Shown: positions 25,764-44,350, counted from the stretch's first letter. The stretch is 53,476 nt of DNA from an uncultured Pseudomonadota bacterium (GCA_964583525.1 CAZOXD010000010.1:1-53476), one strand, 5' to 3'. Made by a program: numbers and translations. The notes: a model not told the origin generated them from the letters alone.

Positions 25764-25862
25764 GCTGTGACTTCCTTTTCCGCGGATGAGCGAAGGGTAA
25801 AGCCTCACGCTTTATTAACTGATTATCCCCCATTGACTATCTGGGAGCCCAATTGGATTTCC

Positions 25863-26807
25863 CTATAGAGGCTCTCTCGCGCGAGTCAAGCACATGTCCG
25901 CGAGATCAGCTATAGAAGCTGTCCCGGCACACATTACCGTATCGGCGCCTCCCCAATAAATTTTTACCGTTCCGTCATCTTCCGGGATTGCTCCGCAGCT
26001 AAACACCACATTCGGTACATAACCTGTTCGCTCCCAGGGAGCAGCAGGTTCAAGGATCCATTCATCGGCCACGCCAAGGATGCGCTCCGGGTTATCCAGG
26101 TCGTGAAGGGCAACCCCCAGGCGGTAGACTGCCCCTCCCATTGTTTGAAAAACCCCGTGGTAGATGTGTATCCAGCCTTTTTTGCTGGGAATAGGGGGTG
26201 CCCCTGGCCCAATCTTCATCTCATCCCAATGGTATTTCATAGGGTTCATAATGACACGGGAATTTCCCCAGTGGATCAAATCCGGGGAATAGGAGATGCA
26301 AATAGGCCACGGGTTGATTTCCGAGTGGGGCCGGTCGAGGCGAACGTAGTGACCGTCGAATTTTCTCGGGAAAATCACGGTATTGCGCATATCCGGCTGG
26401 GAAATGAAAGCAATCCGCTCGACCATATCAAAATCCCGGGTTCGAGCCAGGCCAATTCTAACGCCGTATCTTGAATAGGCGCTGTAAGTCAGCAGGTACT
26501 CACCTTCACAGGGGGAAATGCGCATATCCTCCACCCCATATTCCTCGTACTCGGCAAAAACCCCTTCTGTTGCCGGTTCGAGAAACGGTTGAGGGTGTAC
26601 GACAAAGGAAAAACCATCAACGCTCTCGGCACAGCCAATGATCGAGCGCCCGTTCAGGCGATGCGACCGAAAGAGCAATATGTAACGGTCCTGGAACTTG
26701 CAAGCCCCTGCGTTGTGCACCGTTGCGACCGGGTAGGGAATATCCTCTTTGGTCAAAATGGGATTCTTCTCATATCGGCGAACAATGCCAGCGTGTTTTT
26801 CCACCAC
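25863..26807 (-). CDS. GH130 family glycoside phosphorylase/hydrolase
   Basis: VHNAGA, YGVEDMRI, RNTVIFP, KIGPGAPP and YVPNVVFSCG. Confidence 0.9.
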   Translation of the reverse strand: MVEKHAGIVRRYEKNPILTKEDIPYPVATVHNAGACKFQDRYILLFRSHRLNGRSIIGCAESVDGFSFVVHPQPFLEPATEGVFAEYEEYGVEDMRISPCEGEYLLTYSAYSRYGVRIGLARTRDFDMVERIAFISQPDMRNTVIFPRKFDGHYVRLDRPHSEINPWPICISYSPDLIHWGNSRVIMNPMKYHWDEMKIGPGAPPIPSKKGWIHIYHGVFQTMGGAVYRLGVALHDLDNPERILGVADEWILEPAAPWERTGYVPNVVFSCGAIPEDDGTVKIYWGGADTVMCAGTASIADLADMCLTRAREPL

Positions 26808-26838
26808 GACTTTTGCTCCGTTGTGTCCCGCATCGGTG

Positions 26839-27882
26839 TTACGATGCAGGAGTCAGCCTGTCAAGCCCTCCCGCTCCTCTCAAGATCTCGCGGTAAACAG
26901 AAAGATACTCGTCAACCATACGCTCGGACGAAAACCGCTTTTCAACCGACTTGCGGCACTCTGCCCGCTCTATTGATCCGATCTGTGCAACTGCCTCCAC
27001 GGCGCCATCGACGTCCCGCACCAGAAAACCGTTGGTCCCCGACGTGATCAGTTCAGGCATCGAACCTCGATTAAAGGCAATTACCGGAGTGCCGCAGGCC
27101 ATCGACTCCACCACAGACAGTCCAAAGGGTTCCTCAAAATAAATCGGGTGGAGCAGGGCATAGGCTTGGCGCAGCATGCGATTTCGTTCGGCCGGCCCGA
27201 CGCTTCCGATGTACTGAACCTGATTGTCATCGATATGAGGTTTTACATGAGTATCAAAATAATCCTGGTCCTGGATGATGCCGGCGATAATCAATTTTTG
27301 CCCTGAGCGTCTGGCAACTTCAATGGCTTCCCGGGTTCCTTTATCCGGGTGTATTCGCCCGAAGAAAAGAAGATAGTCGTTGGGACTGGGGTTGAAGTCA
27401 AACTGTTCAAGTTCAACACCGTGATGGATTGTCCGCAGATAGTTCAACCTCTCGCTCCGATCTGCATCGCTGATCGACACATAATGGGTCTTGCCGTTGT
27501 ATTTTTCGTAAATCGGCAAAATTTCCGGCGAGGAGAACCCGTGGATCGTCGTGAGAACCGGCGTCGCGACCAATGCGGTGTAGGTAAGCGGCAGGAAGTC
27601 GAAATGGTTGTGGATGAGATCGAATTCCCGGGCGTGCTCAAAGACCTCGGCTATATGCAGGCACTCCCAGACCTTGGGGATGATGCTGCTGTCTTCTTCA
27701 TAGCCGGATCGACATACACCTCTAAGTTCTGCCTGCGTCAGAGAATCTTTCGTGGCAAACAAGGTCACCGCAACGCCCCGGCGCACCAATCCTTCCGTCA
27801 GCACTGAGACCACGCTTTCCCAGGGTCCATAGTGCTGAGGGGGGGTTCGCCAAGCGATCGGCGATAACATCGCGATTTTCAT
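26839..27882 (-). CDS. GT4 family glycosyltransferase
   Basis: MKIAMLSPIAWRTPPQHYGPWE, FGRIHPDKG and EEPFGLSVVESMACGTPVI. Confidence 0.92.
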   Translation of the reverse strand: MKIAMLSPIAWRTPPQHYGPWESVVSVLTEGLVRRGVAVTLFATKDSLTQAELRGVCRSGYEEDSSIIPKVWECLHIAEVFEHAREFDLIHNHFDFLPLTYTALVATPVLTTIHGFSSPEILPIYEKYNGKTHYVSISDADRSERLNYLRTIHHGVELEQFDFNPSPNDYLLFFGRIHPDKGTREAIEVARRSGQKLIIAGIIQDQDYFDTHVKPHIDDNQVQYIGSVGPAERNRMLRQAYALLHPIYFEEPFGLSVVESMACGTPVIAFNRGSMPELITSGTNGFLVRDVDGAVEAVAQIGSIERAECRKSVEKRFSSERMVDEYLSVYREILRGAGGLDRLTPAS

Positions 27883-27989
27883 CTCTTCACCTTCTGAGGG
27901 GATGTCCCCTCCGCCGTGGAATTTATCCGGCACCCCTTGTCTATGGTGGAATATTGCTCCATGGGGGCCGGGTGCGCTCGGATTTTGAA

Positions 27990-29480: not shown

Positions 29481-29549
29481 GGTGATTTCCAACTTACAAG
29501 TGTTTGAAGAACTGGCTTCGGTAACGCTGCAACAGCCACGGTGAGGATA

Positions 29550-30314
29550 ATGATCTGGACTGACGATGCCATCAGACGATTGGAACGTGTTCCGGAAGGC
29601 TTCATGCGAAAAGCAGCAAGGAATACCGTAGAAGAGTATGCCAAGGAAAACGGTTTTGCCGAAATTACGTTGGGAGTCGCCGAGGCCGCCTTAATCGATT
29701 CAAGGAAGAAAATGTTCGCTGCCTCTCAGGAAAACGCCTCGCAAGAATTCAGTGCCCCGGAAGATCGAAAGGGGAAGACAGCGGATACCGTGACAATCGA
29801 TGAGGGATCATTTGAGTGTGGCTTATGCGGACTTGTCACATTTGGCAGCAAACCCGATCATTGTCCATCTTGTCACTTTGATGAATTTCGGATGTTAACA
29901 GGAGAAGAGCTAAAGAACATCACTAGATCAGCAAGTTTGATACTAGAATGGGATCAAGATGCGTTGGATAAGTTGGAGCGAATCCCCCCTGGATTTATGC
30001 GTCAGATGACGAAATGCCGGGTCGAGCATTGGGCCAGAAAATGCGGTGCCGAACGTGTAACTGTTGATGTGGTTGAAGGTAAGTACAAGAATTGGGAACA
30101 GGGTACCCCCCGGTCGCCGAGTGAACTCGAATGGAGTGCTGGAGCGAGGTCACGAGTGGAAAAGATTCCTCAATTCATTCGGCCAGTGGTGGTGAAAGAG
30201 ATCGAGCAGAAGGTCAAAGACATTGGTGGGAATTTCGTCGATGACGAGGCAATAGACGCAGTCATTCGTGGCTGGAGCAAGGACATGGATTCATTCCACG
30301 TTGGGAGTGAATAA
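29550..30314 (+). CDS. Protein with three PCP_red-like repeats and a rubredoxin-like CxxC...CxxC domain
   Basis: Repeats WTDDAIRRLERVP, WDQDALDKLERIP and WSAGARSRVEKIP; CGLC...CPSC between repeats 1 and 2. Confidence 0.75.
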   Translation: MIWTDDAIRRLERVPEGFMRKAARNTVEEYAKENGFAEITLGVAEAALIDSRKKMFAASQENASQEFSAPEDRKGKTADTVTIDEGSFECGLCGLVTFGSKPDHCPSCHFDEFRMLTGEELKNITRSASLILEWDQDALDKLERIPPGFMRQMTKCRVEHWARKCGAERVTVDVVEGKYKNWEQGTPRSPSELEWSAGARSRVEKIPQFIRPVVVKEIEQKVKDIGGNFVDDEAIDAVIRGWSKDMDSFHVGSE

Positions 30315-30679: not shown

Positions 30680-31948
30680 TTACTGATATTTTCCATCCTG
30701 CATTTCTTTTGCATAATTTTCCATAATCCTTACCCCGTTTTTTAGCCAAAAAGCCCAGGCCTCTTCATTGGTTTTCGGAGCATGAATAGGATCGAGTATG
30801 GTTAAGAGTTTGTTTTCCCAAGTCTCAAGTGCATTCATCTTCTCCAGATCGTAGGAATATCTGTCATAAAGACGAGTAACACCTGCTTCAACGTGATTAA
30901 GAACTTTTGATAGTACCGGCCCAGGAATGCCTGCGGATGCCATATGGCTAGTAGCGGTTCGCCTGAGATCATGGAGCCAAAAATCTTGGATCCCCGATAA
31001 TTCTTTTACTCGTTGAGCTGCCTTTTGGACATTAGCTATGTGCTGGTTCTCCCTTGTCGGGCTAGGAAACACCCAAACCTGATCCTTTTTCTTTTCTGGA
31101 AGAGAAGAAATGATTTCCTTGGCCGTGACGCATAATGGCACTCGATGAAAATGTCCATTTTTTACAAACTCCCCCGGGATCGTCCACCATTTGCCTTTTT
31201 CATCAATATCCCGGAACCGCATATGGGAAATTTCCCAGCGCCGTTGAGCCAAAAGAAGCATGAGTTTAAAAATTGCCCCTACATGGGCTCCTTGCTCATC
31301 AAAAGCGATCCAAACCGATCTGATTTCCTCCTCTGTCAGGACTCTCTCTCGTTCATTTTCCTTTGAGAGTTTTTTTATCCCATGACATGGATTTACCTCC
31401 AACATGTCACGGCTAATCGCCCAGTTAAAAATTACGCTAATCAATGAGTGAATACGGTTCGCCTGAATTGGAGCGCCTCTGGATACAACACCATCTAGTA
31501 AAGCAATTACATCACGTTTTTTAATGTCGGTGGCTCGGAGTCTCCCCCAGGCTGGAAGCAATTCTTTTTTAATCAGTCTCTCGTCCGCTTTCCACTGTCG
31601 CTTTTTAGGCTTGGCATGTTTTTCAAGATATTCATTGGAGATTGCCTTAAAAGTCTTCCCATCAAGCCTCTTTGTTTTTTTCCGCTCGTAAACTAAATCC
31701 AACCCTTTTTGCGCAGAATTCAGAATATCCCTTGCCTCTCTTTTGGCTTCTGCCATTTTCATTGTTGGATAGACACCAAGTTTTTTGCTTTTCTGTTTAC
31801 CTCCGACCCGGTACATCACGATCCACGACTTTTTTCCTGAACTGTAGACATTAAGGCCTAGCTCGGCATCTTTATCCCAATATTGATCCTTTCCCTCCTG
31901 TGGAGGCTTGAGTGCCTTAACAATCCGATCTGTCAGTTTTTTTTTCAT
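30680..31948 (-). CDS. int: Tyrosine recombinase/integrase with arm-binding domain, paralogue of 9023-10312
   Basis: MKKKLTDRIV..., LLAQRRWEI, HDLRRT, VLNH and RLYDRYSY; long blocks shared with int1. Confidence 0.95.
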   Translation of the reverse strand: MKKKLTDRIVKALKPPQEGKDQYWDKDAELGLNVYSSGKKSWIVMYRVGGKQKSKKLGVYPTMKMAEAKREARDILNSAQKGLDLVYERKKTKRLDGKTFKAISNEYLEKHAKPKKRQWKADERLIKKELLPAWGRLRATDIKKRDVIALLDGVVSRGAPIQANRIHSLISVIFNWAISRDMLEVNPCHGIKKLSKENERERVLTEEEIRSVWIAFDEQGAHVGAIFKLMLLLAQRRWEISHMRFRDIDEKGKWWTIPGEFVKNGHFHRVPLCVTAKEIISSLPEKKKDQVWVFPSPTRENQHIANVQKAAQRVKELSGIQDFWLHDLRRTATSHMASAGIPGPVLSKVLNHVEAGVTRLYDRYSYDLEKMNALETWENKLLTILDPIHAPKTNEEAWAFWLKNGVRIMENYAKEMQDGKYQ

Positions 31949-31994: not shown

Positions 31995-32120
31995 AAAAAG
32001 TCGAGTTTGATATCACGTAAATTTTCGTGTTTTTCTTCTCAAAACAAAATAATTGTCATAATATCAATCATATGAAACAATTTTACCTAATAATTCCAAC
32101 GAGATGGATTAAAAAATTAA

Positions 32121-32166
32121 GCGATTCATAATCGCGAGGTCGGGAGTTCAAGTCTCCCTCCTGCTA
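32121..32166 (+). repeat. att scar 3: 3' half of a tRNA(CAU)
   Basis: GCGATTCATAATCGCGAGGTCGGGAGTTCAAGTCTCCCTCCTGCTA, identical to copy 1. Confidence 0.92.
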
Positions 32167-32475: not shown

Positions 32476-34026
32476 TTATTCCGTCGGGTTGGTGGCCTGG
32501 CCCGGATCCCCCTCGGAAGGGTGAGCAGTTGGAATGGAGCCAAAGGGCGCAGATTCCCGCGCCCTCAAAATGATTGGCTTGCTTGACAGGATCTTAGGGC
32601 GAATCACGATCAGGATTTCGGTTTCCAGGATTTGCGACTTTTCTTCACGGAAGAATACACCGAGCAAGGGGATATCCCCCAGTACCGGCACTTTCGTAAT
32701 CTGGAAGCGCCGTTTCTTTTGCAAAAGTCCACCCAGGATAATAGATTCCCCTTCCCTGATGCGGACGGTGTTGGAAATCGAATGGGATACGATTTCAGGG
32801 AATCCTTTGTCGCTGGTGGTAAGATCGCTCACCCGAGCCGTGAGGATATTCAACACGACTTCGTTGGTCTCTGCGATGTGGGGGATGATCTTCAACTCCA
32901 CCCCGAAGCGCACACTCTCATTCTTGCGGGTTTCATCGTTCGGGGTCAGATCGATCCAGGATTCATGGATGGAAGAGAAGGTGGCCATGCGGCCATCGAG
33001 TGTGACGATGCTGGGTGTGGCCTTGAGCGATGCATCGCCCTTCCGGCTGAGCCATTTGACCGACGCCGCGAATTCCTTCGTCAGCAGGTTGGCCATTTTG
33101 TATTGCAGTCCGAGACCTCCACCATTTCCGCTGACTTGCCATGATGAACCAAACCCGCTGGATTCTTCGGAAGGACTTTGCCCACCCGACCAATCGATGC
33201 CCAGGAATTTACGGCCTTTTTGGGTGATTTCGAGAATGGTCATCTCCAGCAGAACCTGAGGCGGTTGCCGGTCAATCGTCAACACGTCTTTTTGAATTCG
33301 CCGCTGAACCGACGTGGGCGCCACGACCGTCAGCAGTCCACGTTTCTCGTGGAGGGTTATGAAGCGGCGATAGTATGGGGAGATTAATTCGTGGACTTCC
33401 TTTGGGCTGAGATGGACAGGTTTGTACAGGCAGGTTTCGGACAACAGATGAAAAGAGGGATTCTCCGGCGTACCCTCGCCGATCAGATAGAATTCATCGA
33501 TCCTCCGAAAGCTGAAATTTCCGGGAGATAGAATCATCTCCAGACTTTTTTCCAAGAGCTGATTTTTAATGTTGGCCGAAATCAATCCCTGCACCGTCTC
33601 ATCCGGTATAATGGTGACCTCGCTCTGAATGCTCAATTCCAGCAGCGCTTCACGCAGATCGGCTTCCACGAACAATGCGGAAACCAAAGGCTGCTCTCGA
33701 TTTTGCGAGGGCTCGCTTTCTTTGTCGCTACATACGAATTCCGTCTTGCCGGTCTCGCTTGCCGCGGTCACGACAGGGTGCGAGCCGTTCGAAACAGCTT
33801 CCAGCGCGCGCCGTGATTTCAGGATGTACTGCCAGGCCAATTCCTGCTCCTGGGGATGGTCACGGTAAATCCCCTCGAATGCCGCGAGGGCCTGCCGGTA
33901 TTTTCCTTGATCGAACAGGCTCTTCCCCTCCCACATGCCGAGGGGGGGAGAATCGGAAGCGGAACAGGAGGCCAGCAGACCGGCCGTCAGCCCCGCCAGC
34001 ATCATTTTTCTGAAGGCGGTTTTCAT
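32476..34026 (-). CDS. Lipoprotein secretin (type II/III secretin family) with TPR-like, N0/STN and N3 domains
   Basis: Lipobox LAS-C; PPQVLLEMTILE, LGIDW, TPSIVTLDG, GVELKIIPHI, GESIILGGL and VPVLGDIPLLGVFFR...ETEILIVIRPKI. Confidence 0.92.
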   Translation of the reverse strand: MKTAFRKMMLAGLTAGLLASCSASDSPPLGMWEGKSLFDQGKYRQALAAFEGIYRDHPQEQELAWQYILKSRRALEAVSNGSHPVVTAASETGKTEFVCSDKESEPSQNREQPLVSALFVEADLREALLELSIQSEVTIIPDETVQGLISANIKNQLLEKSLEMILSPGNFSFRRIDEFYLIGEGTPENPSFHLLSETCLYKPVHLSPKEVHELISPYYRRFITLHEKRGLLTVVAPTSVQRRIQKDVLTIDRQPPQVLLEMTILEITQKGRKFLGIDWSGGQSPSEESSGFGSSWQVSGNGGGLGLQYKMANLLTKEFAASVKWLSRKGDASLKATPSIVTLDGRMATFSSIHESWIDLTPNDETRKNESVRFGVELKIIPHIAETNEVVLNILTARVSDLTTSDKGFPEIVSHSISNTVRIREGESIILGGLLQKKRRFQITKVPVLGDIPLLGVFFREEKSQILETEILIVIRPKILSSKPIILRARESAPFGSIPTAHPSEGDPGQATNPTE

Positions 34027-34032
34027 CTCAAC

Positions 34033-35310
34033 TCATCCCTGGCCGTTTTTCAGCGAAATTCGATGTTTCGGCGAATTCGGGTAATGAGCCGTGGCGCCTT
34101 GACCGCTGACGGTCCGGATTTCCAGTGGGGTGGAAACACCGCTTTCATCCACAACCTCGGCAGTGAAGGTTTGTTGCGCATTCACCATCGATCCAACCTG
34201 CTTTTGTTTGAGAATGACCCGTCCGCGACCTTTACCTGCCAGCCGCACCTCGCGCGGGACAAAGGTATATCCGCCTGTTCGATTCCCATCGGTTGGGCCG
34301 GAGGGCAGCCGCACCAGGACCGCCTTAACCTGCGTGTTGACGAGGGTGAGCACGGAAAACGCAGTGCGATCCTTGCGCCATTTTATCCGGATCGGATTGG
34401 GCGTTACCCGCACCGGATTTGGATTGCGAGAAACCACGCTGGGCGGGAGAGCTTCCGCAAGATGCTCCGGCTTGATTTCGATTTCACCGCTCACCACCAC
34501 CTGGCCGCGCCGGCCGAGCCGGTTGACGATGCGCATCCTGTAGCTTCCGGGCCGCGTCACTTTTTCCAGCCGGCCCATCAGGCGCACCTTGGCGCCGGGA
34601 AATACCAGCGATCGTTCATCTCCATTCTTCCAGGTTGCCGCCGATTTGAGTTCGATTCGCTCCAGCAACCTGTTGTTCCCATCGCGCAATTGCAGGTGGG
34701 AGCGTACCCGATAATCCTGAAGCGAAACATTGCTGAGAACGCCGGAGATCATTGGTTTGCCGTTCACCTTTTCGATCCGGATGCCGTCGAACTGTCCCCG
34801 TTCACGGACATGTTTGCCGGCAATTTTCACCTTGATAATGACGGCATAGCGGACATTGATCCGGATGCCGTTGGCCTTGGATTCGCTTTCGCCTTCCTCC
34901 ACCATCACTGCGAATAATTTCGTACCCCTGACCCGCCGCGGCAGGACGACTTTCCCTTTCACCACCACCGGCCTGTTGGCCGTAATGTTCAGGTTGGATT
35001 TTTCCAGCAACACGAAGGGGCCCTTGGACTCTCGCTTGCCGGGAGAAGCGGCGAAAAACTCCATGTGACCGGATTCCTGTTGCGCCATGCCGAAAGGGGT
35101 GAGTTTTATTTCCCCGCTGCTCTTGGCGTGAACCGAAAAGGAAAAAGCGTGCTCGCTGTTGGGCCGCTGCTCTATTTCAATCAGCATTGGGGATACGGAC
35201 AATTCCGCCCCTTTCCCGATGTTGGCCATTGCCAAAATCATCAAGGACGCCATCCACCAGAGCATGATCACCCGGAAAACGATGCGGGATTTTCGTGATA
35301 ATTTATTCAT
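34033..35310 (-). CDS. Exported multi-Ig-domain PapD/FimC-like chaperone-type protein
   Basis: N-terminal hydrophobic signal; mature LSVSPMLIEI, VRYAVIIKV strand, LVFPG..VRL motif in domain 2, and a third beta-rich domain starting VRVTPNPIRI. Confidence 0.65.
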   Translation of the reverse strand: MNKLSRKSRIVFRVIMLWWMASLMILAMANIGKGAELSVSPMLIEIEQRPNSEHAFSFSVHAKSSGEIKLTPFGMAQQESGHMEFFAASPGKRESKGPFVLLEKSNLNITANRPVVVKGKVVLPRRVRGTKLFAVMVEEGESESKANGIRINVRYAVIIKVKIAGKHVRERGQFDGIRIEKVNGKPMISGVLSNVSLQDYRVRSHLQLRDGNNRLLERIELKSAATWKNGDERSLVFPGAKVRLMGRLEKVTRPGSYRMRIVNRLGRRGQVVVSGEIEIKPEHLAEALPPSVVSRNPNPVRVTPNPIRIKWRKDRTAFSVLTLVNTQVKAVLVRLPSGPTDGNRTGGYTFVPREVRLAGKGRGRVILKQKQVGSMVNAQQTFTAEVVDESGVSTPLEIRTVSGQGATAHYPNSPKHRISLKNGQG

Positions 35311-35333
35311 GTCCGATTCGGGGTTGGAGAGTG

Positions 35334-35378
35334 AAAAAACAGCCCATACGGGATTGCAAATGAATCACCGTACGGGCT
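35334..35378 (-). terminator. Intercistronic stem-loop with U-tract between the pilin-like gene and the chaperone gene
   Basis: AGCCCATACGG...CCGTACGGGCT (one mismatch, G-U on the minus-strand RNA), followed on the minus strand by GTTTTTTCAC. Confidence 0.7.
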
Positions 35379-35398
35379 CGGGGGGAAAAGACAGTGGA

Positions 35399-35872
35399 TT
35401 ACAGTGCCGACACGGTGATGGTGATATCACCGGAATAGGCGCCTGCTTCCTGGTCGGAAACGTCTCCCAGGGTCGCCGAGGCGGATACCGTGTGGCTGGA
35501 ATTGTGAACGCCCGCGCCCGTGTCGAAGGTCAGGCCGGCGCTGTCCAAGGCGTAGGACGGTGTGATCACGTTCGCCCCATTCACCAGATCCGCACCGGTC
35601 AGGGTCACGCTGATCTGCCCGTTGGATTTCACCGTGAAGGCATCCGAACCGGAGTAGATGGCGTTTTCCGAACCATCGGCGTCCGAGGTGGCCAGGGCGA
35701 AGTCATCCAGACCGACGATGGTGGCGAAAAGGCCGACGTTCAAGCTCACCGTGGCGCTGTCGCTGACGGTCCCACCACTCGCGATTCTTCCGCCGGCGGC
35801 GAAGGCCATTCCGTTGGCGGCGATCATAAAGAGAGAGAAAACGGCGACCAGCGTTTTGATAGTGTTCTTCAT
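35399..35872 (-). CDS. Sec-exported Csu/CS1 (SCPU-like) pilin-like subunit, 157 aa
   Basis: RBS GGAG; SPI signal ending AFA-A; small, Cys-free, rich in Ser/Thr/Ala/Gly/Asp; N-terminal SDSATVSLNV strand; C-terminal AGAYSGDITITVSAL. Confidence 0.7.
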   Translation of the reverse strand: MKNTIKTLVAVFSLFMIAANGMAFAAGGRIASGGTVSDSATVSLNVGLFATIVGLDDFALATSDADGSENAIYSGSDAFTVKSNGQISVTLTGADLVNGANVITPSYALDSAGLTFDTGAGVHNSSHTVSASATLGDVSDQEAGAYSGDITITVSAL

Positions 35873-36010
35873 TTGTTCAACTCCAATTTTAGGCAAGTTT
35901 GCCTGTTTTGATTGTGTGGCGAAGGGGAGCCGATTGTTATCGGCGCCGGTCCTCCGCAACCATGACCGGAAACAGTACTTGATGCTTCCCGGCCCTTCAC
36001 TTCTCCTTAT

Positions 36011-36026
36011 CGCAATCACCGTGCCA
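36011..36026 (-). promoter_or_regulatory. Sigma54 (-24/-12) promoter of the pilin-chaperone-secretin operon
   Basis: The minus strand reads TGGCACG-GTGA-TTGCG, matching the TGGCACG-N4-TTGC consensus. Confidence 0.85.
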
Positions 36027-36233: not shown

Positions 36234-38195
36234 ATGAACGAGGCGATTATCCTGGCGGTCGATGACCAGGAAGAGATGCTATCCGCTTACAAGAACATCT
36301 TTTCCGGGCCACAAAGCCCCGCCCCCAATAGGCTGTTCGACGGCCCCCAATCCCATGAGGAAGCGCCTGCGGCAAGAAAGAACTTCACCCTGGTAACGGC
36401 AAACCAAGGCGAAGAGGCAGTGCGGATTGTTGAGGCATTGCATCGGGAGAACAGGCCGATTCAAGCTGTCTTTCTCGACGTCCAAATGCCTCCCGGAATC
36501 GACGGGCTGGAAACGGCCAAGCGGATGCGGGCCATCGACTCCGAGTTGCAGATCGTCATTTGCACGGCTTATTCGGAGCATCCCTTCGAGAACTTCATCG
36601 AGCAACTGGGGCGGCCCGATCACCTGTATTACCTGGAAAAGCCCTTTTCCCCGGACGAGGTGTTGCAACTGGCCCATTCCCTGGCCGGTCAATGGTCACG
36701 GCGCCAGGAAATGAGTCAGGTCATGAGCCACCTTCGGCGCAATGCTGAAAAAACGGTTAATGAGGCTTTCAGTGGAAAGACCCATACAGGAAGTCTTCAG
36801 AATTTGTGCCTGGAATTCAACGATCTTACGGGAGCCCTTTCATCCTCACTCGTCCGGGAAGAAAGATCGGGAGCGTTGAAATTCCTGTACGGGTGCGGAC
36901 TGTTGGAATCCGACCAGGACATTTCACGGGCCCGAAACAACCGCCTGCCCCTGAAAATCTTCCGCATCGCCACCGGGGACGTCGAATCGTCCCTGGGCCG
37001 GCTGGCTGTCCTCTTGTTGCAGCCCAATCAATCGGATTTTTTTTGTCGTCAGGTGGTGGAAGCCTATAAGCCCGTAATGATTACCTTCGCCAGGGAAATG
37101 GAAAATAAACCCGGGCCGGAAAGCAACGCTTCGGCCTCCTCCCCGGAATCGGCCGCAGGGGGAGAGGGGCTGTCCCCGCTCAAGGAATTTCATGGCATCC
37201 TCAGCGGCGATCCCGGCATGCAACGCTTATGGGAGCAAATCGCCCGTGTTGCATTGCAGGATGTACCGGTTTTCATTTCCGGTGAAACGGGCGCTGGCAA
37301 GGAACTCGTGGCGCAAGCGATGCATCGGGAAAGCCCGCGCTCCACCCACACTTTCGTCGCGCTGAACTGCGCCAATCTCTCCGAAACCATGCTGGAGTCA
37401 CAACTGTTCGGCCACCACAAAGGGGCCTTCACGGGGGCCGTGCGCGATCAACCCGGACTATTGAGCGAGGCGGATGGCGGCACCCTGTTTCTCGACGAGG
37501 TGGCGGAAATTCCGCTGCCCATTCAGGCCAAATTGCTGCGGGTGCTCCAGGAGCGGGAATATCTTCCCCTCGGTGCGACCAAACCGGTGCGATTCGACAC
37601 CTTGATCGTTTCGGCCTCCCACAGTCCATTGCGGCAGGCTGTGCAGGAGGGCCGGTTTCGCGAAGACCTGTTCTACCGGCTGCACGTGATCCCCCTGGAA
37701 CTCCCGCCTCTGCGGGACCGCGGCGGCGATGCAGTCCTTCTGTTTCAGCATTTTCTGCAGGCTGAACTGGCAAAGAAAAAGGCCGGGTCGAAGCTTCCTG
37801 CAATCGGTCCGGATGTGCTTACCGTGATTCGGCTGCATGAATGGCCGGGCAATGTCCGCGAATTGCAAAATTTTTGCGCTTATATCGCAGCCATGAGCGA
37901 TGGCGATCGCATCACATTGGATCACTTGCCCCGCGAATTGAGGGAGGCTGTTGTCAATGCAGGAGGAGGAGAGTTTGCCGTTCCAGGCGCCGGTTCCCAG
38001 TTGACAATCCCCTCTTCAGGTCCTTCCGGAAGCATCGCCGGCCATCCCGAAACTTTTGCCCGGCCCTCACAATTAAATCGGGACACCATCCTCGCGGCGC
38101 TCGAACGCTGCGGAGGTAACCGGAGTGAAGTCGCAAGGCAATTCGGAGTAAGCCGGATGACCCTGTGGCGCCATATGAAGGCCGAGGGCATCTAG
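36234..38195 (+). CDS. Sigma54-dependent enhancer-binding response regulator (REC-linker-AAA+-HTH)
   Basis: REC (VDD, LDVQM, TAY, KPF); GETGAGKE; GAFTGA; LFLDEV; FREDLFYRL; WPGNVREL; C-terminal Fis-like HTH. Confidence 0.95.
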   Translation: MNEAIILAVDDQEEMLSAYKNIFSGPQSPAPNRLFDGPQSHEEAPAARKNFTLVTANQGEEAVRIVEALHRENRPIQAVFLDVQMPPGIDGLETAKRMRAIDSELQIVICTAYSEHPFENFIEQLGRPDHLYYLEKPFSPDEVLQLAHSLAGQWSRRQEMSQVMSHLRRNAEKTVNEAFSGKTHTGSLQNLCLEFNDLTGALSSSLVREERSGALKFLYGCGLLESDQDISRARNNRLPLKIFRIATGDVESSLGRLAVLLLQPNQSDFFCRQVVEAYKPVMITFAREMENKPGPESNASASSPESAAGGEGLSPLKEFHGILSGDPGMQRLWEQIARVALQDVPVFISGETGAGKELVAQAMHRESPRSTHTFVALNCANLSETMLESQLFGHHKGAFTGAVRDQPGLLSEADGGTLFLDEVAEIPLPIQAKLLRVLQEREYLPLGATKPVRFDTLIVSASHSPLRQAVQEGRFREDLFYRLHVIPLELPPLRDRGGDAVLLFQHFLQAELAKKKAGSKLPAIGPDVLTVIRLHEWPGNVRELQNFCAYIAAMSDGDRITLDHLPRELREAVVNAGGGEFAVPGAGSQLTIPSSGPSGSIAGHPETFARPSQLNRDTILAALERCGGNRSEVARQFGVSRMTLWRHMKAEGI

Positions 38196-38301: not shown

Positions 38302-39651
38302 TCAAACATAGAGAATCGACTCGCCTTCATTTTCCCCATCATTTTTGCCGGAAACCAGACGGCGCTTGAGATAGTGCTGAACGATTCGATCCTTCGGGCT
38401 GAGAGCATAAATCTCCCGAAACATCTTCTGGGCCGCGGTGAATTGGTTGGAATGATAGAGGACAATCGCTTCGTCGAATTTCGTTCTGGTGGCTTGTTTC
38501 GCTTCTTTTACGTCAGCGGGATCCGCATCGAAAATCTCATGAATCACCACCGATTTCGTGATTCCCTTGAACGTCACCCGATCGATGATCCTGGCGAGGT
38601 ATCGGGTGGGATCGCTTAGGCTGCCAAACGTGTTTTCGCTAATGAGAATCCCAACCCCGTACCGTTTTGTGAGGCTTTCAATGCGGGATGCGATGTTCAC
38701 CGCATCGCTCACCACGGAGCTATCCATGCGTTGACCTTCGCCAAGGGTTCCTAACATGACATCACCGGTATTAATGCCAATTCCGATGTCGATAGGTGAA
38801 TATCCCGCTCTTTTCCGTCCCTGGTTATACTCAAATAATCTATTCCGCATGGATATGGCGGCATCGACGGCATGATCAGGTCTAGCATCGAATATCCCCA
38901 TGATCGCGTCCCCGATGTACTTGTCTATAACGCCCTGGTGCTTTCGTATTATCGGCCCCATTTTTCCGAGGTAGGAATTTAAGAAATTGAAATTTTCTTT
39001 TGGAGAGAGCGTCTCGGAGAGATTGGTGAACGACCGGATATCAGCAAATAGAATGGATAAATATTTGTTGACATGATCCCCTATTTTGACTTCCAGGATG
39101 CTTTTCTTGTCCATCATTTTTAACATTTGCTTGGGGACGAACCGTTCATAGGCCCGGTTGATTTGGGCCAACTTCCAGCGAAAAGTCAGGAATTGGGCCA
39201 TTTGCATCAACTCGTCGCGATCAAAAGGTTTTTTCAGCAGGAGAAATCTATTCTCTCCCAATTTCTGGTCCATTTCCTGGAGGGATTTATCCGCAAAGGC
39301 GGTGACAATGGCAATCTCGATTTGTGGGTCGAGTGCTAAAATCCTTTGCGCGGTTTCCAGCCCGTCGATGCCGTGTTGCATCCGCATATCGATGAAAACC
39401 AGGGCATAGGGGGATCCTTCAGCAATCGCTGAGGAAACGGCTTCGACACCCTCCAACCCTTGCTGAACCGTTGTGGTCTGGAATTTCGTTTTTTCGCCGT
39501 TCTGAATATCCCCGTGTTCATCGCAATAAGATTGATCCTCGAATATGTTCAGCTTCTGACCAACTTTCACTCCTGAAGGAGTAAGGATCGATTGGTACGC
39601 CTCCAGGATTTTCGGATCGTCATCGATGATCAATACATTGAATTCATTCAT
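38302..39651 (-). CDS. Response-regulator class III adenylate/guanylate cyclase
   Basis: REC, then ILFADIRSFT, KYIGDAIM, GIGINTG and DAVNIASRIESLTK. Confidence 0.93.
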   Translation of the reverse strand: MNEFNVLIIDDDPKILEAYQSILTPSGVKVGQKLNIFEDQSYCDEHGDIQNGEKTKFQTTTVQQGLEGVEAVSSAIAEGSPYALVFIDMRMQHGIDGLETAQRILALDPQIEIAIVTAFADKSLQEMDQKLGENRFLLLKKPFDRDELMQMAQFLTFRWKLAQINRAYERFVPKQMLKMMDKKSILEVKIGDHVNKYLSILFADIRSFTNLSETLSPKENFNFLNSYLGKMGPIIRKHQGVIDKYIGDAIMGIFDARPDHAVDAAISMRNRLFEYNQGRKRAGYSPIDIGIGINTGDVMLGTLGEGQRMDSSVVSDAVNIASRIESLTKRYGVGILISENTFGSLSDPTRYLARIIDRVTFKGITKSVVIHEIFDADPADVKEAKQATRTKFDEAIVLYHSNQFTAAQKMFREIYALSPKDRIVQHYLKRRLVSGKNDGENEGESILYV

Positions 39652-39727
39652 CGTTCATGAAAAGAATGGAGTTTGGGAAAGATGGAAGTCCATTCAACCG
39701 TTGCCGGCCCACGATCAAGCCCCACAA

Positions 39728-40855
39728 TCAAGCCGCGGCCGGTAATGTGAAACGAATGGAAGTCCCCTGCCCGGGCACGGAGCGGACCGCCAGATCTGAA
39801 TGGTGCAGGTCCATCACGACTTTCTTCACCATTGCCAACCCGAAACCGGTCTTTTTTTCACTCTGTTGAAGGGTTACCCCAGGTTCGAACACCAGGTTGA
39901 GATTCTCTTTGGATATTCCAGATCCTCTGTCTTCCACGAGGAATTCGATCTGCTCCTCTTCAGTTTCACGGATGGTTACGTTGACGGGCCCGGTGGAATA
40001 TTCGAGAGCATTGGCAATCAGGGATTTCAAGGCAATCCCGATCAAATTGCGGTATCCCCGGATTTTCGATAGGGCCGAGGTTGCAGGCTCGCTGAAAGTG
40101 GATACGCGGGCATCAAATTTCATATCTCCCAACAAATCCTCCAAAAGGAAGGACTCCTCCGGCACGCCATTATTTTTCCGGAGGATGGCCTCCACCAGTT
40201 CCAGTACCCGCTCGTTTTTCTGGATCATCTCCGGTATCCGCTGGGAGCTGAGGGACCGAACCAGCTCGAAGCTTCTCAATTCGAGCAGGGCATCGAACAA
40301 CTGCATCGAGCCGACTTTGTGCCCCCGCGTGAAGTTCACGAGATTGCGCACCGCCTCCATTTGCCACAGGTTCCGGTGGATGTTTTCACGCATATACAGC
40401 AGCGCCTGCAGCACCTCCTGTAATTCAAAGGGCTTCTTGATGAACATGAATTGGGTGCTGGCCACTCCGAGGTGGCGGGAAATGTCATGAATCGACCAGT
40501 TGGAATAAGCGGTAATAAACACAATGTTCAAGCTGGGATCGATCGCCAGCAAGGTGGAAGCCACCTCCAACCCGGAAGATTCGGGCAATTGCATGTCCAA
40601 CACCGCGATTTGGAATTGGCGGAACGTCCCGAACGCGTTGCGAAAAGCATCCAAGGCCTGTTTGGCTTCCTTGAAGTAGGCCCCCTTGAATTCCACCTCC
40701 TGAATAGGGATGAATCCTTTGTCTTGCTTTATCAGCGGTGGGTCGAACAGGTCCCCCGGTTCCTCGGAGGAATCCAATTGGAACAGGGCCGGATTTTCCA
40801 TCAACCGATAGGTATCAAGCATTTCCGGGTGGTCGTCTAAAAATAGAATATTCAT
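39728..40855 (-). CDS. Receiver domain fused to an HATPase_c domain (atypical hybrid kinase)
   Basis: REC MNILFLDD; LIANALEY, DRGSGI, FEPGVT and GFGLAMV; no canonical HisKA H-box (possible His in RGHK). Confidence 0.8.
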   Translation of the reverse strand: MNILFLDDHPEMLDTYRLMENPALFQLDSSEEPGDLFDPPLIKQDKGFIPIQEVEFKGAYFKEAKQALDAFRNAFGTFRQFQIAVLDMQLPESSGLEVASTLLAIDPSLNIVFITAYSNWSIHDISRHLGVASTQFMFIKKPFELQEVLQALLYMRENIHRNLWQMEAVRNLVNFTRGHKVGSMQLFDALLELRSFELVRSLSSQRIPEMIQKNERVLELVEAILRKNNGVPEESFLLEDLLGDMKFDARVSTFSEPATSALSKIRGYRNLIGIALKSLIANALEYSTGPVNVTIRETEEEQIEFLVEDRGSGISKENLNLVFEPGVTLQQSEKKTGFGLAMVKKVVMDLHHSDLAVRSVPGQGTSIRFTLPAAA

Positions 40856-40915
40856 GGTATTCAACCTTCGTTGGAATGAAATTCCTTGGCTGATCCGCAC
40901 AAAATTTGGGCGGGA

Positions 40916-41689
40916 TTATTCAAGCCGTGATTTGTCGTTCATATTTTGCATCAGTCTGTTGAAAAGCCTTTCCTGTTTTTCATCGAACTCAATTCCTACG
41001 CGGAATCGCTCCCCTTCCTGTTTCACCCAGCGCACCTGCCCGTCGGCCTCGACTCCGAGGGACGGGAAGCGCAGGGAGACCGGTTGGCCGGCCGGGAATT
41101 CCATGGAGACATCGTTCACCTGGATACCGTCCATGCTCGCATCGACCAGATCCCCTTCCAGTTCCTGGGGGGATTGAAAGGAAACCCGCTGGATGGTTTC
41201 CATGCGTTTGCGCTGTCGCCGGTCCCGGTTCAACTCGATCCAGGTGGCCAACTCGGATTCCACCGCCTGCTTGAAGACAAGAGGCGACACTAATTTTTCC
41301 AGATAGATAAAACTGGAGTTGCCGGCTTTCTGCTTGAGGGTTTCCATGGAGAAATCGGCGGTGGCCGTAAAAACGATCAACCGGATCCGGGAATCGATGC
41401 GCCGCGCCTCCTCAACCAGCCAGATTCCGTCCTTTTTGGGCATGCGTACATCGGTGACCAGCAAGTGAAAGGGATTTCCTTCCTGGTAGGCCTTGTGTAA
41501 TGCATCCCGTGCGGTCAACGGACAATCGAAGAATTCAACGGAAAACTCCTCTTCGTGGCTTTCCTCTGCCAGGGACTGCCCGCTGCCGAACAAGTCCAAA
41601 GGGTGGGTGTTCCCCGGAATTCGCAGGATCGAACGCACCATATCGTGCATGGCCGGTTCGTCGTCGATATATGCGATCCTCGCTTTCAT
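40916..41689 (-). CDS. Receiver domain-PilZ protein
   Basis: REC MKARIAYIDD; PilZ RRQRKR...DASMDGI...VRWV...GIEF. Confidence 0.88.
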   Translation of the reverse strand: MKARIAYIDDEPAMHDMVRSILRIPGNTHPLDLFGSGQSLAEESHEEEFSVEFFDCPLTARDALHKAYQEGNPFHLLVTDVRMPKKDGIWLVEEARRIDSRIRLIVFTATADFSMETLKQKAGNSSFIYLEKLVSPLVFKQAVESELATWIELNRDRRQRKRMETIQRVSFQSPQELEGDLVDASMDGIQVNDVSMEFPAGQPVSLRFPSLGVEADGQVRWVKQEGERFRVGIEFDEKQERLFNRLMQNMNDKSRLE

Positions 41690-44238
41690 ATGCGCATCTC
41701 CTTGGGGAAGGTCATGGTCGCATTGGCGCCCTTGCCCAAGCCCTCGGAATGCAACTCGAACCGCCCCCCGCCGCGGGCCATGAACAGCCTGCAATTGTGG
41801 ATACCCAAACCGGAACCACCCTCGCCGGAAGTTGCATCCTGCTTGGTGGTAAAGCCGATCTGCCCCACCTGCTGCAAATTCTCGGGGGATATTCCGTTTC
41901 CATTGTCTCTCACCTCCAACACGACCTGGTCCGGACCCGATTTGAGAACGATATCAATCCGTTTGTCCGCGCCATTAATGCCCGCAAAGGTTTCCCCCGC
42001 GTTTTTCAGCACGTTTTGAATCATGTTGAACAAGCGCACTTTTTCCACCTTGAGCAACACTGCGGAAGGCGGCGCTGACCCATTGGACGATTCGATCCTG
42101 AATTGCGATCGGATTCCCTTCGACTCCCAATTGTCTGCAAGGATGGAAAGAACGGCCCGCACCACCATGATCAAATCGACATCCTCACGCAGGGATATTT
42201 CCTGTTGCAGGTGGGATTGGGATATGGTCGATTCCACGACCTTTCCGAGGGTGGTGTCGATGGTGGCCAGTTCTTCCATGGTCTTGGACTCGATGTTGCG
42301 CAACAATTCCAAACCGTTGATAAAACCAGCCAAATCGTTTTTCCCGTCTGCTCTCAAATATTCAGACAGATCGCCTTGTTCCGCCCGCTCCTGAATCAGC
42401 TTCACGCGGGTCACCAGTTGCTCCAGGTAGTGATTCGTATGCCGGTCGGCGACCAGGTTGGCGGATTTCACCCGCACCGGCGTGATCAGATTGCCGATGG
42501 TGTGCACAAAGTCGCGGAAGGCTTCGATCCTGGCATGTTGGCTGGTTTGCAACTCCAGTTCGGTTTGCATCTGCTTCAATTTTGTCAGAGTTTCCTTCAG
42601 TTCGACCGAATTCACCCGTTCCAGGTAAAGGAGGCGTTGGATTTCCAGAGCGGAGTCGCGGACTTTTCCCGACAGGTTGTCCATCTCCAGGATTGGCGAG
42701 GACAGTTGGGTCTCGATATGGATTCCGTCTGCGACATTGCGTTGCACCTCATCGGTGTAGGTCATCACTCTTTGCATCTGCCGATTGAAATAGGCGCTTA
42801 TCAGCGAAGTGATGAGGATAAAGCTGCTCATCAGGAGCAATAGTTCCACCAGGATGTGATTGATCCGGTTCTGCATCACCGCCTGATACTCCCGCAGGGG
42901 TTGCTCCAAATGCAGGCTTCCTCCCAGGGCGGTCAGGGGGGCCGTATAGAGCATCGCCGATTCCCCCCAGCGCACCATGGCGGGTTTTTCCCCTGGGGGA
43001 AATTTCATGGTGAAGCCATCGCCCAACGCCTCCATTTGCACGGCGTCAAGAGAAAATTTTTCGTGGGGTGAACTGGGAGGGGGGAAAACGATTCGCTTTT
43101 CCGGATCAGTGAAGATGACTTTGGTTCCGGAATCGGAAAACAGGGTGTTGAGCATATCAAGCGCCTGCCCCAGGGCATTCGGGGAAACCGTTCCCACCGC
43201 CAGACAATCTATTTCCCCATTCGGTTTGTAGAGGGTCTCCACAATCGCCAGTTGGATGTTTTCCTTCCCCTCGGAAGGCACCGATGCCCAGGCAAACTGG
43301 TGGCCATTGGTGGTCCACAATAGTTGGGGGGTCTGATCGTCGATGAGAAGTTGCCTCCCCGGCGTGGTATCTCCCGCCTGGAGCGGCAGTAAATTGTGCA
43401 GCAGCCGGCCTTGGGAGTCGGTGAGATAGAAGCGATTGAGGAGGGGGTATTGCTCCCGCAAGGAAAGCGCCAACGCTCGTATTTCAGCTTCCTGACGTGC
43501 CGGATTGTCTTTCAGCGCCCGCAGCTTCGGAACGAAGTTCCCGACCTGGACCACACCCTGGCGGCTGGTGATCAGCAAATGTTCCAGGCTTTGTTGGATC
43601 GCATGCGCTTTTTCCTGCAGGTCCGACCGGATTTCCCTGTTGAGTTCACGGTACAAATCGCGGCCCGAATAGGCCGTCTCCGCGAAGAGGATCAATCCGA
43701 TGAACAGCATCAGTCCGGCGCCGATGTAGTCCGACAGGGAGGGGAGATGAAAATTCTCCCCCAGCAGGCGGGAGCGAAGCGGTTTCCAAAGCAGCAGGGC
43801 CCCAGCGATGGAAAGATTGAACAGCGCGTTGGTGGACTGCTTCAGGGCGATTAAAAAGGTGGACGTGAGGGAAAGGGAAAGCACGTGATAATAGAAAAAA
43901 TAAACCAGGGGCATCCCGGCGAGCAACCAGTAAAACAGATCCGAGCCCAGGGCCCAGCGCCTGCTTCTACCGGCCACGAAACCCACCGCGGCTGCTTCCA
44001 GCGTGAAAATAATGATCGCGTAGGGATGTCCCCAGAGAAAATAGGTGTAGGACGAGGCGATCAGGGCCGCCGCCGCCCCGTACCAGGGGCCATAGGCCAG
44101 CACGATCAGCATCGGCAGGATGCCCCCGAAAATGATGTTCACCCCGAATGACAACTCGATGTTGACCGCGTTGATCAGGAATCCAATCCCCCCGGCCAAG
44201 GCCGTCACCAGAATTTTTTTCTGAATTTGAGCATTCAT
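41686..44238 (-). CDS. Membrane sensor histidine kinase with a multi-TM N-terminal domain and an extracytoplasmic domain
   Basis: TM-rich N-terminus (FGVNIIFGGILPMLIVLAYGPWYG); H-box FVHTIGNLITP; NVLKNA, DNGNGI, FTTK and GSGLG. Stop overlaps the next ATG. Confidence 0.9.
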   Translation of the reverse strand: MNAQIQKKILVTALAGGIGFLINAVNIELSFGVNIIFGGILPMLIVLAYGPWYGAAAALIASSYTYFLWGHPYAIIIFTLEAAAVGFVAGRSRRWALGSDLFYWLLAGMPLVYFFYYHVLSLSLTSTFLIALKQSTNALFNLSIAGALLLWKPLRSRLLGENFHLPSLSDYIGAGLMLFIGLILFAETAYSGRDLYRELNREIRSDLQEKAHAIQQSLEHLLITSRQGVVQVGNFVPKLRALKDNPARQEAEIRALALSLREQYPLLNRFYLTDSQGRLLHNLLPLQAGDTTPGRQLLIDDQTPQLLWTTNGHQFAWASVPSEGKENIQLAIVETLYKPNGEIDCLAVGTVSPNALGQALDMLNTLFSDSGTKVIFTDPEKRIVFPPPSSPHEKFSLDAVQMEALGDGFTMKFPPGEKPAMVRWGESAMLYTAPLTALGGSLHLEQPLREYQAVMQNRINHILVELLLLMSSFILITSLISAYFNRQMQRVMTYTDEVQRNVADGIHIETQLSSPILEMDNLSGKVRDSALEIQRLLYLERVNSVELKETLTKLKQMQTELELQTSQHARIEAFRDFVHTIGNLITPVRVKSANLVADRHTNHYLEQLVTRVKLIQERAEQGDLSEYLRADGKNDLAGFINGLELLRNIESKTMEELATIDTTLGKVVESTISQSHLQQEISLREDVDLIMVVRAVLSILADNWESKGIRSQFRIESSNGSAPPSAVLLKVEKVRLFNMIQNVLKNAGETFAGINGADKRIDIVLKSGPDQVVLEVRDNGNGISPENLQQVGQIGFTTKQDATSGEGGSGLGIHNCRLFMARGGGRFELHSEGLGKGANATMTFPKEMRI

Positions 44239-44297
44239 GCCGTTGTTCCTTCTTCTCTTTTGCTGCGTTAGGGTTCGTTGTGTAAATATTATATTTC

Positions 44298-44350
44298 TTA
44301 CAGCATAACCCTGATATGTGCTTGAATTATGCGTATATTGTGCAAATTTC
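44298..44350. promoter_or_regulatory. Duplicated AT-rich regulatory block, copy A
   Basis: TTACAGCATAACCCTGATA...TATTGTGCAAATTTC; similar to 46481-46543. Confidence 0.5.

Follow-up and report, generated by a model that had tools for sequence, protein, structure and literature searches.

How could a small protein resembling the subunits of chaperone-usher (CU) pili be built into a surface fibre, or exported, by an operon that encodes a secretin instead of an usher? This question is raised by three genes in a 53,476-nt stretch of DNA from an uncultured Pseudomonadota bacterium (GCA_964583525.1, CAZOXD010000010.1:1-53476), the whole of which is hereafter called the window. An initial annotation, made from the sequence alone, had placed a 157-aa subunit, a PapD-like protein and a secretin under a single sigma54 promoter, and had proposed a hybrid chaperone-secretin route for a fibre of immunoglobulin (Ig) fold. 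The listing of open reading frames (ORFs) in the window shows the subunit, middle and secretin genes lying consecutively in that order, all on the minus strand, with the promoter where it had been placed. From our findings, the operon probably represents a novel route for the assembly or export of surface fibres. More specifically, we hypothesize, with a probability of roughly 0.5, that it is a self-contained outer-membrane fibre-assembly module, a "chaperone-secretin pathway", in which a donor-strand fibre would be assembled by the chaperone-like middle protein and extruded through the secretin. The features of the operon and its divergent neighbour are the following:

36012-36026, minus strand: sigma54 -24/-12 promoter element TGGCACGGTGATTGC, about 140 nt 5' of the subunit start codon
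35399-35872, minus strand: major subunit gene, 157 aa (ORF and alignment of homologues)
35334-35378, minus strand: hairpin (35341-35378) and U-run (35334-35339) after the subunit stop codon (RNA folding)
34033-35310, minus strand: middle gene, periplasmic chaperone-like protein, 425 aa (ORF, AlphaFold 2 and Foldseek)
32476-34026, minus strand: lipoprotein secretin gene, 516 aa (Pfam Secretin, PDB matches and lipobox)
36234-38195, plus strand: divergent sigma54 enhancer-binding response regulator, with receiver, AAA+ Sigma54_activat and HTH_8 domains (Pfam and NCBIfam)

The first gene encodes the putative fibre subunit. Its ORF extends 5' to a GTG at 36019; the start was assigned to the ATG at 35872, which has a GGAG 10 nt upstream, because homologues align end to end with the 157-aa form. 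The protein carries a class I Sec signal (approximately residues 1-25, ...NGMAFA/AGG), followed by a conserved N-terminal strand (D38-G47) and a beta-sandwich (residues 50-156). Both segments singled out by the initial annotation, the N-terminal strand SDSATVSLNV and the C-terminus AGAYSGDITITVSAL, ending in ...TVSAL, are present in the sequence, and homologues match over the full length. A single-sequence search gathered 20 clusters of this family, and a profile search 107 proteins or clusters. The residues D38-S-A-T-V...V46-G47 are invariant or at least 90% conserved, hydrophobic residues alternate along DSATVSLNV (A40, V42, L44 and V46), and the C-terminal strand follows the motif G-x-Y-x-G-x-[IL]-x-[IV]-T-V. 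Among 100 motif-bearing major subunits, 99 stop exactly three residues past the T[VLI] of the last strand, with a hydrophobic final residue, a fixed length that is expected if the C-terminal carboxylate docks in a chaperone cleft; no Cys is present in the mature part of 94 of 100 major subunits. In two loci of Pseudohongiellaceae type (L004:2709-3296 and L007:4413-4925), the signal peptide of the major subunits is separated from the N-terminal strand by a long Asn or Gly-Asn repeat (NNNNN or GNNGNN).

The sole Pfam signal of the subunit is that to DUF4402 (PF14352), for which it reaches 14.2 bits (E 0.073), below the gathering threshold of 25.2 bits, and sub-threshold matches to the same family were obtained for 19 of 24 members of the subunit family (best E 0.0014), so that it is at most a distant DUF4402 relative. 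No sequence relative was found in the PDB with the single sequence or with the profile (the sole match in the PDB searches of the subunit and the middle protein was a spurious one to VDAC, E 1.3), and hhalign detected no similarity between the family profile and Escherichia coli FimA. A monomer model was built with AlphaFold 2 (AF2) from a 20-sequence alignment, with a mean predicted local distance difference test (pLDDT) of 74, and 82-90 in the core; two of the five models failed. In this model the beta-sandwich spans residues 50-156 and ends in the C-terminal strand (150-156), and residues 26-49, which include the N-terminal strand, are placed outside any strand. When compared with the PDB by Foldseek, about 24 of the 30 top matches were CU pilus subunits, including CfaB, the PapG pilin domain (template modelling score, TM, 0.56; root-mean-square deviation 4.1 Å), CsuA/B, FimA, FimG and CfaE. 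The subunit is thus predicted to have a CU pilin-type fold, with structural matches that include the Csu and CFA/I (CS1-class) types named in the initial annotation. Since the conserved N-terminal strand stays outside the fold, the model is not that of a complete domain sufficient in itself, an outcome that favours the initial proposal.

The middle protein begins with an N-terminal helix (signal or anchor), for which most orthologues have a cleavable signal (AxA/AEF), and ends in a polar tail of low confidence that forms no helix. In the AF2 model of the monomer (mean pLDDT 80.9; predicted TM-score, pTM, 0.54), three beta-sandwich domains (residues 37-163, 172-279 and 300-402) form a tandem Ig-like array; a hairpin loop of low confidence (140-153) precedes the invariant R154-Y155-A156 strand, and R154, R169 and R209 are invariant in the family. 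In CU chaperones, basic residues of the cleft (PapD R8/K112 type) anchor the carboxylate at the subunit C-terminus, a role for which these arginines would be candidates. The best compact Foldseek matches were those to WxLIP of Enterococcus faecium (9i1y and 9i25; E 6e-12, TM 0.61-0.65), and CU chaperones were also matched, namely CfaA (TM 0.58), CsuC (0.48-0.54), PapD (0.45), DraB and FaeE. The subunit and the middle protein therefore match, each on its own, the respective partners of the same solved systems (CfaA-CfaB and CsuC-CsuA/B). At the sequence level, no Pfam domain, including those of the PapD family (PF00345 and PF02753), was matched in the window protein or in its 18 relatives. The initial description of this protein as PapD-like is therefore right for the fold and probably for the mechanism, and wrong as a sequence family.

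The close family of the middle protein is rare, with 18 clusters in a word-indexed search. An exhaustive profile search recovered a superfamily of 1173 cluster representatives at E < 1e-3 (129 at E < 1e-30), which includes a large subfamily of four-domain proteins of about 510 aa and extends over SAR324, Gammaproteobacteria and diderm Firmicutes. Two distant relatives, P0167 (33.3 bits) and P0264 (38.2 bits), exceed the Pfam cut-off of WxLIP_PGBD (PF06030, DUF916) and other distant relatives weakly match WxLIP_HBD (PF11797, DUF3324); neither domain was matched by Pfam in the window protein itself. On these profile matches, we assign the middle protein to a WxLIP-like superfamily that touches DUF916/DUF3324 and lies outside the PapD family. 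A homologue occurs in the cultured genus Cysteiniphilum (WP_192485200.1), and tblastn of the middle protein and of one distant relative against 72,556 plasmids gave no match.

The identity of the third gene, already called a secretin in the initial annotation, was borne out at both the sequence and the structure level. Its product matches Pfam Secretin (PF00263) with E 6.6e-33, with weak matches to Secretin_N (N3) and TPR, and residues 223-484 match the structures of GspD (E 1.6e-23), PilQ, RcpA, InvG and phage pIV. The protein is laid out as a lipobox (LLAS/C), a TPR-like helix pair, an N0/STN-like region, an N3 domain and the secretin domain; the N0/STN-like stretch is called STN in several orthologues, and the lipobox is present in every orthologue inspected. 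Such a lipobox recalls the self-piloting lipoprotein secretins. All NCBIfam secretin equivalogs scored far below their cut-offs (GspD 126 against 351 bits, PilQ 111 against 284, MshL 103 against 250). By these profiles it is a genuine secretin that falls into none of the named classes, and its periplasmic part, N0-N3, is short.

The arrangement of the operon recalls that of a pilus locus in some respects. The sequence TGGCAC-N5-TTGC has a single exact match in the 53 kb, at 36012-36026 on the minus strand, where 0.12 would be expected by chance. Elements of -24/-12 type were found 5' of the subunit gene in seven of eight related close-family loci checked; the position of the element is kept in the SAR324 loci L011-13 and L016, and near-consensus elements are present in L001, L004, L007, L010, L014 and L021. 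The divergent response regulator at 36234-38195 is likely the activator of the operon. A sigma54 regulator stands beside the subunit gene in most close loci, and an equivalent one adjoins it in L010, L011, L014, L021 and L022 and lies near the module in L004-6. In the 88-bp gap between the subunit and middle genes, the hairpin and its U6 run (-25 kcal/mol, z -3.58; one of 200 shuffles folds equally well) probably act as an intrinsic terminator or attenuator and thereby fix how much subunit is made relative to the machinery, and the two downstream genes would therefore be expressed by read-through, at a lower level. An attenuator of this kind typically follows major pilin genes. The secretin gene begins 6 nt past the stop codon of the middle gene.

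What accompanies the three genes is equally relevant. Pfam scans of the 27 large ORFs across the window gave no match to an usher, a T2SSE (GspE/PilB) ATPase, a T2SSF platform or a prepilin peptidase and, as said, the subunit signal is of class I and not of class III, as the initial annotation had stated. Nor did profile scans of the six reading frames reveal a further gene for the subunit or the middle protein in the window. We reject a phage origin of the secretin, since Pfam detected no phage assembly or coat genes in the window or in the related loci.

The composition of the operon was further evaluated in 22 non-redundant loci, 18 close (the window included) and four distant, viewed within ±10 kb around each. 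The close loci come from SAR324 metagenome-assembled genomes (MAGs), Fluviicoccus, Moraxellaceae, Pseudohongiellaceae, Agarilytica, a 3.86-Mb closed contig and several metagenomes; scans of genomes and metagenomes for the close family, made with one restrictive peptide pattern, found at least six and at least seven loci, respectively, which are underestimates. Of the 18 close loci, 17 carry the subunit, middle and secretin genes collinearly, in that order, and the contig of the eighteenth ends before the subunit gene. All four distant middle-protein relatives sampled (L023, L024, L025 and L026) adjoin a secretin and small Sec-signal proteins; L024 belongs to Natronospora cellulosivora, of the Halanaerobiales, which we take to be diderm Firmicutes. 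The distant loci hold three or four paralogous small subunits, without Pfam matches, that match the profile of the window-subunit family weakly (14-22 bits); most of them carry an N-terminal "V-x-V-x-V...FA" strand and a C-terminal "aGxYxGxvxvTvs" motif. No usher (PF00577) was found in any of the 22 loci, by the Pfam lists or by phmmer with FimD, and type IV filament genes lie close by in two of them. An usher or the machinery of type II secretion or type IV pili is thus no regular part of homologous loci, which again speaks for the initial proposal. The invariant gene set is subunit, middle protein and secretin. The module is thus a conserved collinear cassette in SAR324 and many Gammaproteobacteria, with more distant versions in other phyla, and this order kept across phyla rules out a chance juxtaposition of the three genes. 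In the gammaproteobacterial loci, a pair formed by an H-NOX protein and a histidine kinase usually accompanies the module. In two SAR324 loci (L011:10589-11005 and L013:8322-8738), an extra 138-aa gene, with a signal peptide, a possible lipobox and no Pfam match, separates the subunit gene from the middle gene; the window lacks this extra gene.

The system is also broader than the initial annotation had described, not only in its distribution across phyla but also in its accessory genes. Downstream of the secretin, 13 of the 18 close loci have one or two genes whose products begin with a complete copy of the subunit domain, followed by a C-terminal domain. Examples of these fusion genes are:

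L001:12433-13740, subunit-domain fusion after the secretin
L004:6016-6870, subunit-domain fusion after the secretin
L010:12962-14365, subunit-domain fusion after the secretin
L014:13188-15309, subunit-domain fusion after the secretin
L021:13157-15200, subunit-domain fusion after the secretin
L022:13078-14379, subunit-domain fusion after the secretin

Two types were distinguished, one with a C-terminal LruC/DUF4842 domain, of about 430 aa, and one of 240-290 aa in total whose C-terminal domain is unassigned. When compared to the major subunits, the fusions have a Cys in place of Ser43 in the N-terminal strand and a second Cys 9-10 residues past the last strand; no other Cys is present in the accessory proteins read directly or in the three from databases whose cysteines were counted. 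A disulfide therefore probably ties the N-terminal strand to the linker that follows the domain and, judging from their sequences, the fusions look like first-in (tip) subunits that would be unable to donate a strand and would display a head domain. No fusion genes were found in the window or in the SAR324 loci, and the operon of the window represents the minimal version.

Based on these observations, we hypothesize that the subunit would cross the inner membrane by Sec and fold into an incomplete Ig-like sandwich of CU-pilin type ending in the C-terminal strand. The middle protein would then capture it by donating a strand from the domain-1 hairpin (residues ~140-160, GIRINVRYAVII) into the open groove of the subunit, as CU chaperones do. 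Beneath the secretin, the N-terminal strand of an incoming subunit may displace the chaperone strand of the previous one (donor-strand exchange), and the energy of folding could suffice, without ATP, to push the thin growing fibre outwards past the secretin gate. The fusions present in many Gammaproteobacteria would enter first, as tip subunits whose head would be adhesive or enzymatic. Expression would be turned on by the sigma54 response regulator encoded next to the operon. Polymerisation by donor-strand exchange and passage through the secretin are inferred, and we count in favour of a fibre the pilus-like genetics of the system, that is, the promoter-proximal subunit gene with its attenuator hairpin, the paralogous small subunits and the domain fusions. 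As for the family as a whole, we regard it as a possibility a little short of even odds that these loci represent a widespread pathway in which a WxLIP/PapD-like chaperone and CU-type pilins polymerising by donor strands would be served by a dedicated lipoprotein secretin for extrusion, with no usher, ATPase or inner-membrane platform.

Several points weigh against this proposal. To our knowledge, no secretin works without an inner-membrane machine or a phage assembly complex (type II secretion system, T2SS; type III secretion system, T3SS; type IV pili, T4P, or Tad; filamentous phage). The AF2 models cover monomers only, so that donor-strand complementation and exchange are putative. The subunit model is shallow, as it derives from 20 sequences with a mean pLDDT of 74 and two of five models failed, and its Foldseek E values are only about 1e-3. 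In the middle protein, the geometry between domains is uncertain (pTM 0.54), and tandem Ig-like domains match many unrelated proteins in Foldseek. Alone and as a profile, this protein had no sequence match in Pfam, NCBIfam or the PDB, and hhalign of its family profile with E. coli FimC gave a probability of 0.1%, that is, no PapD/FimC sequence similarity; in the absence of hhalign similarity to FimC and FimA, the relationship to CU systems is one of fold only. In the fusions, the extra domain lies on the C-terminal side of the pilin domain, opposite to its position in CU adhesins, and the Cys pair of the fusions might just as well fix the N-terminal strand in the groove of the same molecule, in which case they would be monomeric. 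Finally, in L026 (L026:1-6881) the module has as its neighbour a divergent cluster of type IV filament genes, which comprises an N_methyl pilin, T2SSE, T2SSF and PilM as well as a secretin of its own, and two PilT/PilU-like ORFs lie about 4 kb upstream of the subunit gene in L030 (L030:490-2830).

The fusions and their cysteines could also be explained if the module were a dedicated secretion system for folded Ig-domain cargo that does not polymerise, namely the small protein and the larger fusions, where the N-terminal beta-sandwich would be an export tag delivered to the secretin by the middle protein, and the products would be monomeric or form a surface coat. A whole subunit domain at the N-terminus followed by unrelated C-terminal domains is a layout typical of a secretion tag and its cargo, the two conserved Cys fit an intramolecular lock of a self-complemented domain, and it is well established that T2SS secretins export folded proteins. 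However, the major subunit lacks the Cys pair, as shown by the 94 of 100 without Cys, and its fold matches that of CU pilins that polymerise. Its gene is promoter-proximal and followed by the attenuator hairpin, as in major pilins, and the three or four paralogous small subunits of the distant loci recall heteropolymeric pili. Moreover, a 13-kDa monomer has no obvious means of opening a secretin gate without a piston. We consider such a cargo system unlikely.

The resemblance of the middle protein to WxLIP suggests another role for it, as an envelope scaffold that would be bound to peptidoglycan and keep the small protein, or the secretin itself, attached in the periplasm or at the outer membrane, with the secretin perhaps exporting something else, for instance a polymer. 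WxLIP is the best fold match, and relatives of the middle protein reach the WxLIP_PGBD cut-off. For WxLIP itself, peptidoglycan binding and the retention of WxL proteins on the cell surface have been proposed (PMC10599100), and the abstract of a preprint links secretins to the secretion of exopolymer slime (10.1101/2022.03.08.483542). Nevertheless, the C-terminal transmembrane helix of WxLIP is absent from the middle protein, the window subunit has neither a WxL motif nor any Trp, and no polysaccharide genes are conserved with the module. A scaffold of this kind is quite improbable in our view. Slightly less probable still is that an inner-membrane machine of T2SS or type IV filament type, encoded elsewhere in the genome, uses the secretin as an alternative passage across the outer membrane, with the small protein as its substrate and the middle protein as specificity adaptor or pilot: all characterised secretins do pair with an inner-membrane machine or a phage complex, type IV filament or PilT/PilU-like genes do lie near the module in L026 and L030, and the loci were viewed within their ±10 kb flanks only, but 20 of the 22 have no such genes in these flanks, the cluster in L026 possesses its own secretin, the subunit signal is of class I Sec and not of class III prepilin type, and the secretin, with its short N0-N3 part, is always paired with the middle protein across phyla.

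Returning to the chaperone-secretin proposal, it can be compared with systems already described. The archaic and alternate CU pili (Csu of Acinetobacter; CFA/I-CS1 class 5 of enterotoxigenic E. coli) share with the module a small Sec-exported subunit, here with a predicted CU-pilin fold, that has an N-terminal strand of alternating hydrophobics and a C-terminal strand of the motif given above. They also share a periplasmic tandem-Ig partner (its fold matching CfaA and CsuC), an attenuator after the major subunit gene, and minor or fusion subunits, here found in related loci. They differ in that a secretin takes the place of the usher, which none of the 22 loci has, in that the chaperone-like protein is outside the PapD sequence family and has three or four domains, and in that the extra domain of the fusion subunits is C-terminal, not N-terminal. 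The WxL clusters of Firmicutes, in which WxLIP consists of DUF916 and DUF3324, resemble the module through the compact fold match and the distant relatives that reach the WxLIP_PGBD cut-off. An AF2 prediction has been published in which a hairpin of WxLIP, otherwise disordered, inserts as a strand into a gap of the WxL beta-sandwich and runs parallel to one of its strands (PMC10599100); by analogy, such an insertion may be regarded as donor-strand complementation in all but name. Unlike the module, WxL clusters belong to monoderms, with no outer membrane or secretin, and they include the C-terminal membrane anchor of WxLIP and partners with the WxL motif, neither of which was found here.

With the secretin machines (GspD, PilQ, RcpA, MshL, SctC and pIV), the module has in common a bona fide secretin domain with an N3 and an N0/STN-like region, but here no ATPase, platform, prepilin peptidase, class III pilin or phage genes accompany the secretin in the window or in 20 of the 22 related loci. 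The nearest precedent in print is CccS/CccP of Synechocystis, an SCPU-domain subunit and a PapD_N chaperone without an adjacent usher, which the first describers linked functionally to the PilQ secretin; an usher, slr0019, is encoded elsewhere in the Synechocystis genome and is adjacent in other cyanobacteria (reviewed in PMC4390875). This is likewise a CU-type subunit-chaperone pair with no usher in the operon, except that CccP is a true PapD_N member and no dedicated secretin is encoded with the pair. More recently, the Pam pili of Candidate Phyla Radiation bacteria were described, in a preprint abstract, as formed by Ig-like pilins through donor-strand exchange, with putative CU-like chaperones and a non-canonical pathway (bioRxiv 10.64898/2026.03.03.709456). 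They are alike in having Ig-like pilins and putative CU-like chaperones, and the abstract mentions no secretin for them.

Therefore, the system is not a CU pathway, as it has neither an usher nor a PapD-family chaperone; it is not a T2SS or T4P, with which it shares the secretin only; and it is not a WxL cluster, as membrane anchor and WxL partner are missing. On the predicted structures, it would most resemble an archaic or alternate CU system whose usher has been replaced by a secretin. No description of a chaperone-secretin module or of an usher-less secretin module was found in open-access papers and preprints, in agreement with the initial annotation, which knew of no characterised system with this composition. 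On computational evidence, the composition of the module appears to be new.

The remainder of the window includes a possible boundary of the operon, a signalling cluster and an apparent mobile or defence island. The following features were located there:

32098-32166, plus strand: tRNA-like element (Rfam RF00005, 38.5 bits; 5' half looks degenerate), between the secretin stop and the integrase
30680-31948, minus strand: P4-type tyrosine integrase, downstream of the secretin, beyond the tRNA-like site
998-5986: 1662-aa NACHT protein, in the island
9023-10351: second integrase, in the island
13188-14519: DUF4172-Fic protein, in the island
15930-16991: metallophosphoesterase, in the island
17382-19346: NERD and UvrD_C helicase, in the island

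The tRNA-like element and the P4-type integrase look like an integration hot-spot at the 3' boundary of the operon; ARAGORN called no tRNA in the window, this element included. An integrase fragment likewise follows the secretin in the SAR324 locus L011. Delivery of the operon by the integrase was rejected on account of the upstream synteny shared with SAR324 MAGs and of the position of the integrase beyond the tRNA-like site. Upstream of the sigma54 regulator, a signalling cluster (38302-46345) encodes a receiver-adenylate/guanylate cyclase, a receiver-HATPase, a receiver-PilZ, an 888-aa histidine kinase, an HD_5 fragment of HD-GYP type and a receiver-HisKA, a set that is syntenic in the SAR324 MAG L011. 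The island spans 998-19346 and shows a dip in GC content to 0.44-0.48 at 8-14 kb. A glycan cluster at 21748-27933 (minus strand) comprises two GT4-type glycosyltransferase genes and two GH130 (mannoside phosphorylase family) genes, and a 257-aa protein encoded at 29541-30314 (plus strand) has two PCP_red domains flanking a Cys-rich segment (CGLCG...CPSC). At 47584-52764 (minus strand), an operon encodes a molybdopterin oxidoreductase (920 aa), a 4Fe-4S subunit and an EB_dh (ethylbenzene-dehydrogenase gamma-like) subunit, a combination that is presumably typical of enzymes of the type II dimethyl sulfoxide-reductase family.

The dense two-component and cyclic-nucleotide signalling neighbourhood, together with the H-NOX and sensor-kinase pair of the gammaproteobacterial loci, suggests a role of the module in surface attachment or biofilm formation. 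The pilus and secretion pathways of diderm bacteria form a short and well-catalogued list, and a chaperone-secretin route, if true, would be a new entry on it, made from parts thought to belong to separate machines. Its secretin would be the first to work without a type IV filament, T3SS or phage machine, and its gate would open with no motor in the inner membrane, presumably through the energy that donor-strand exchange releases on folding. The minimal three-gene form is small enough for direct heterologous reconstitution and cryo-electron microscopy, and the fusion subunits suggest a natural scaffold for the display of domains on a fibre. The pathway would also constitute an evolutionary bridge between the WxL clusters of Gram-positive bacteria and CU pili, linking the enigmatic WxLIP to a chaperone function, and it would provide a function for more than 1000 clusters of "hypothetical" proteins from marine, freshwater and sediment bacteria.

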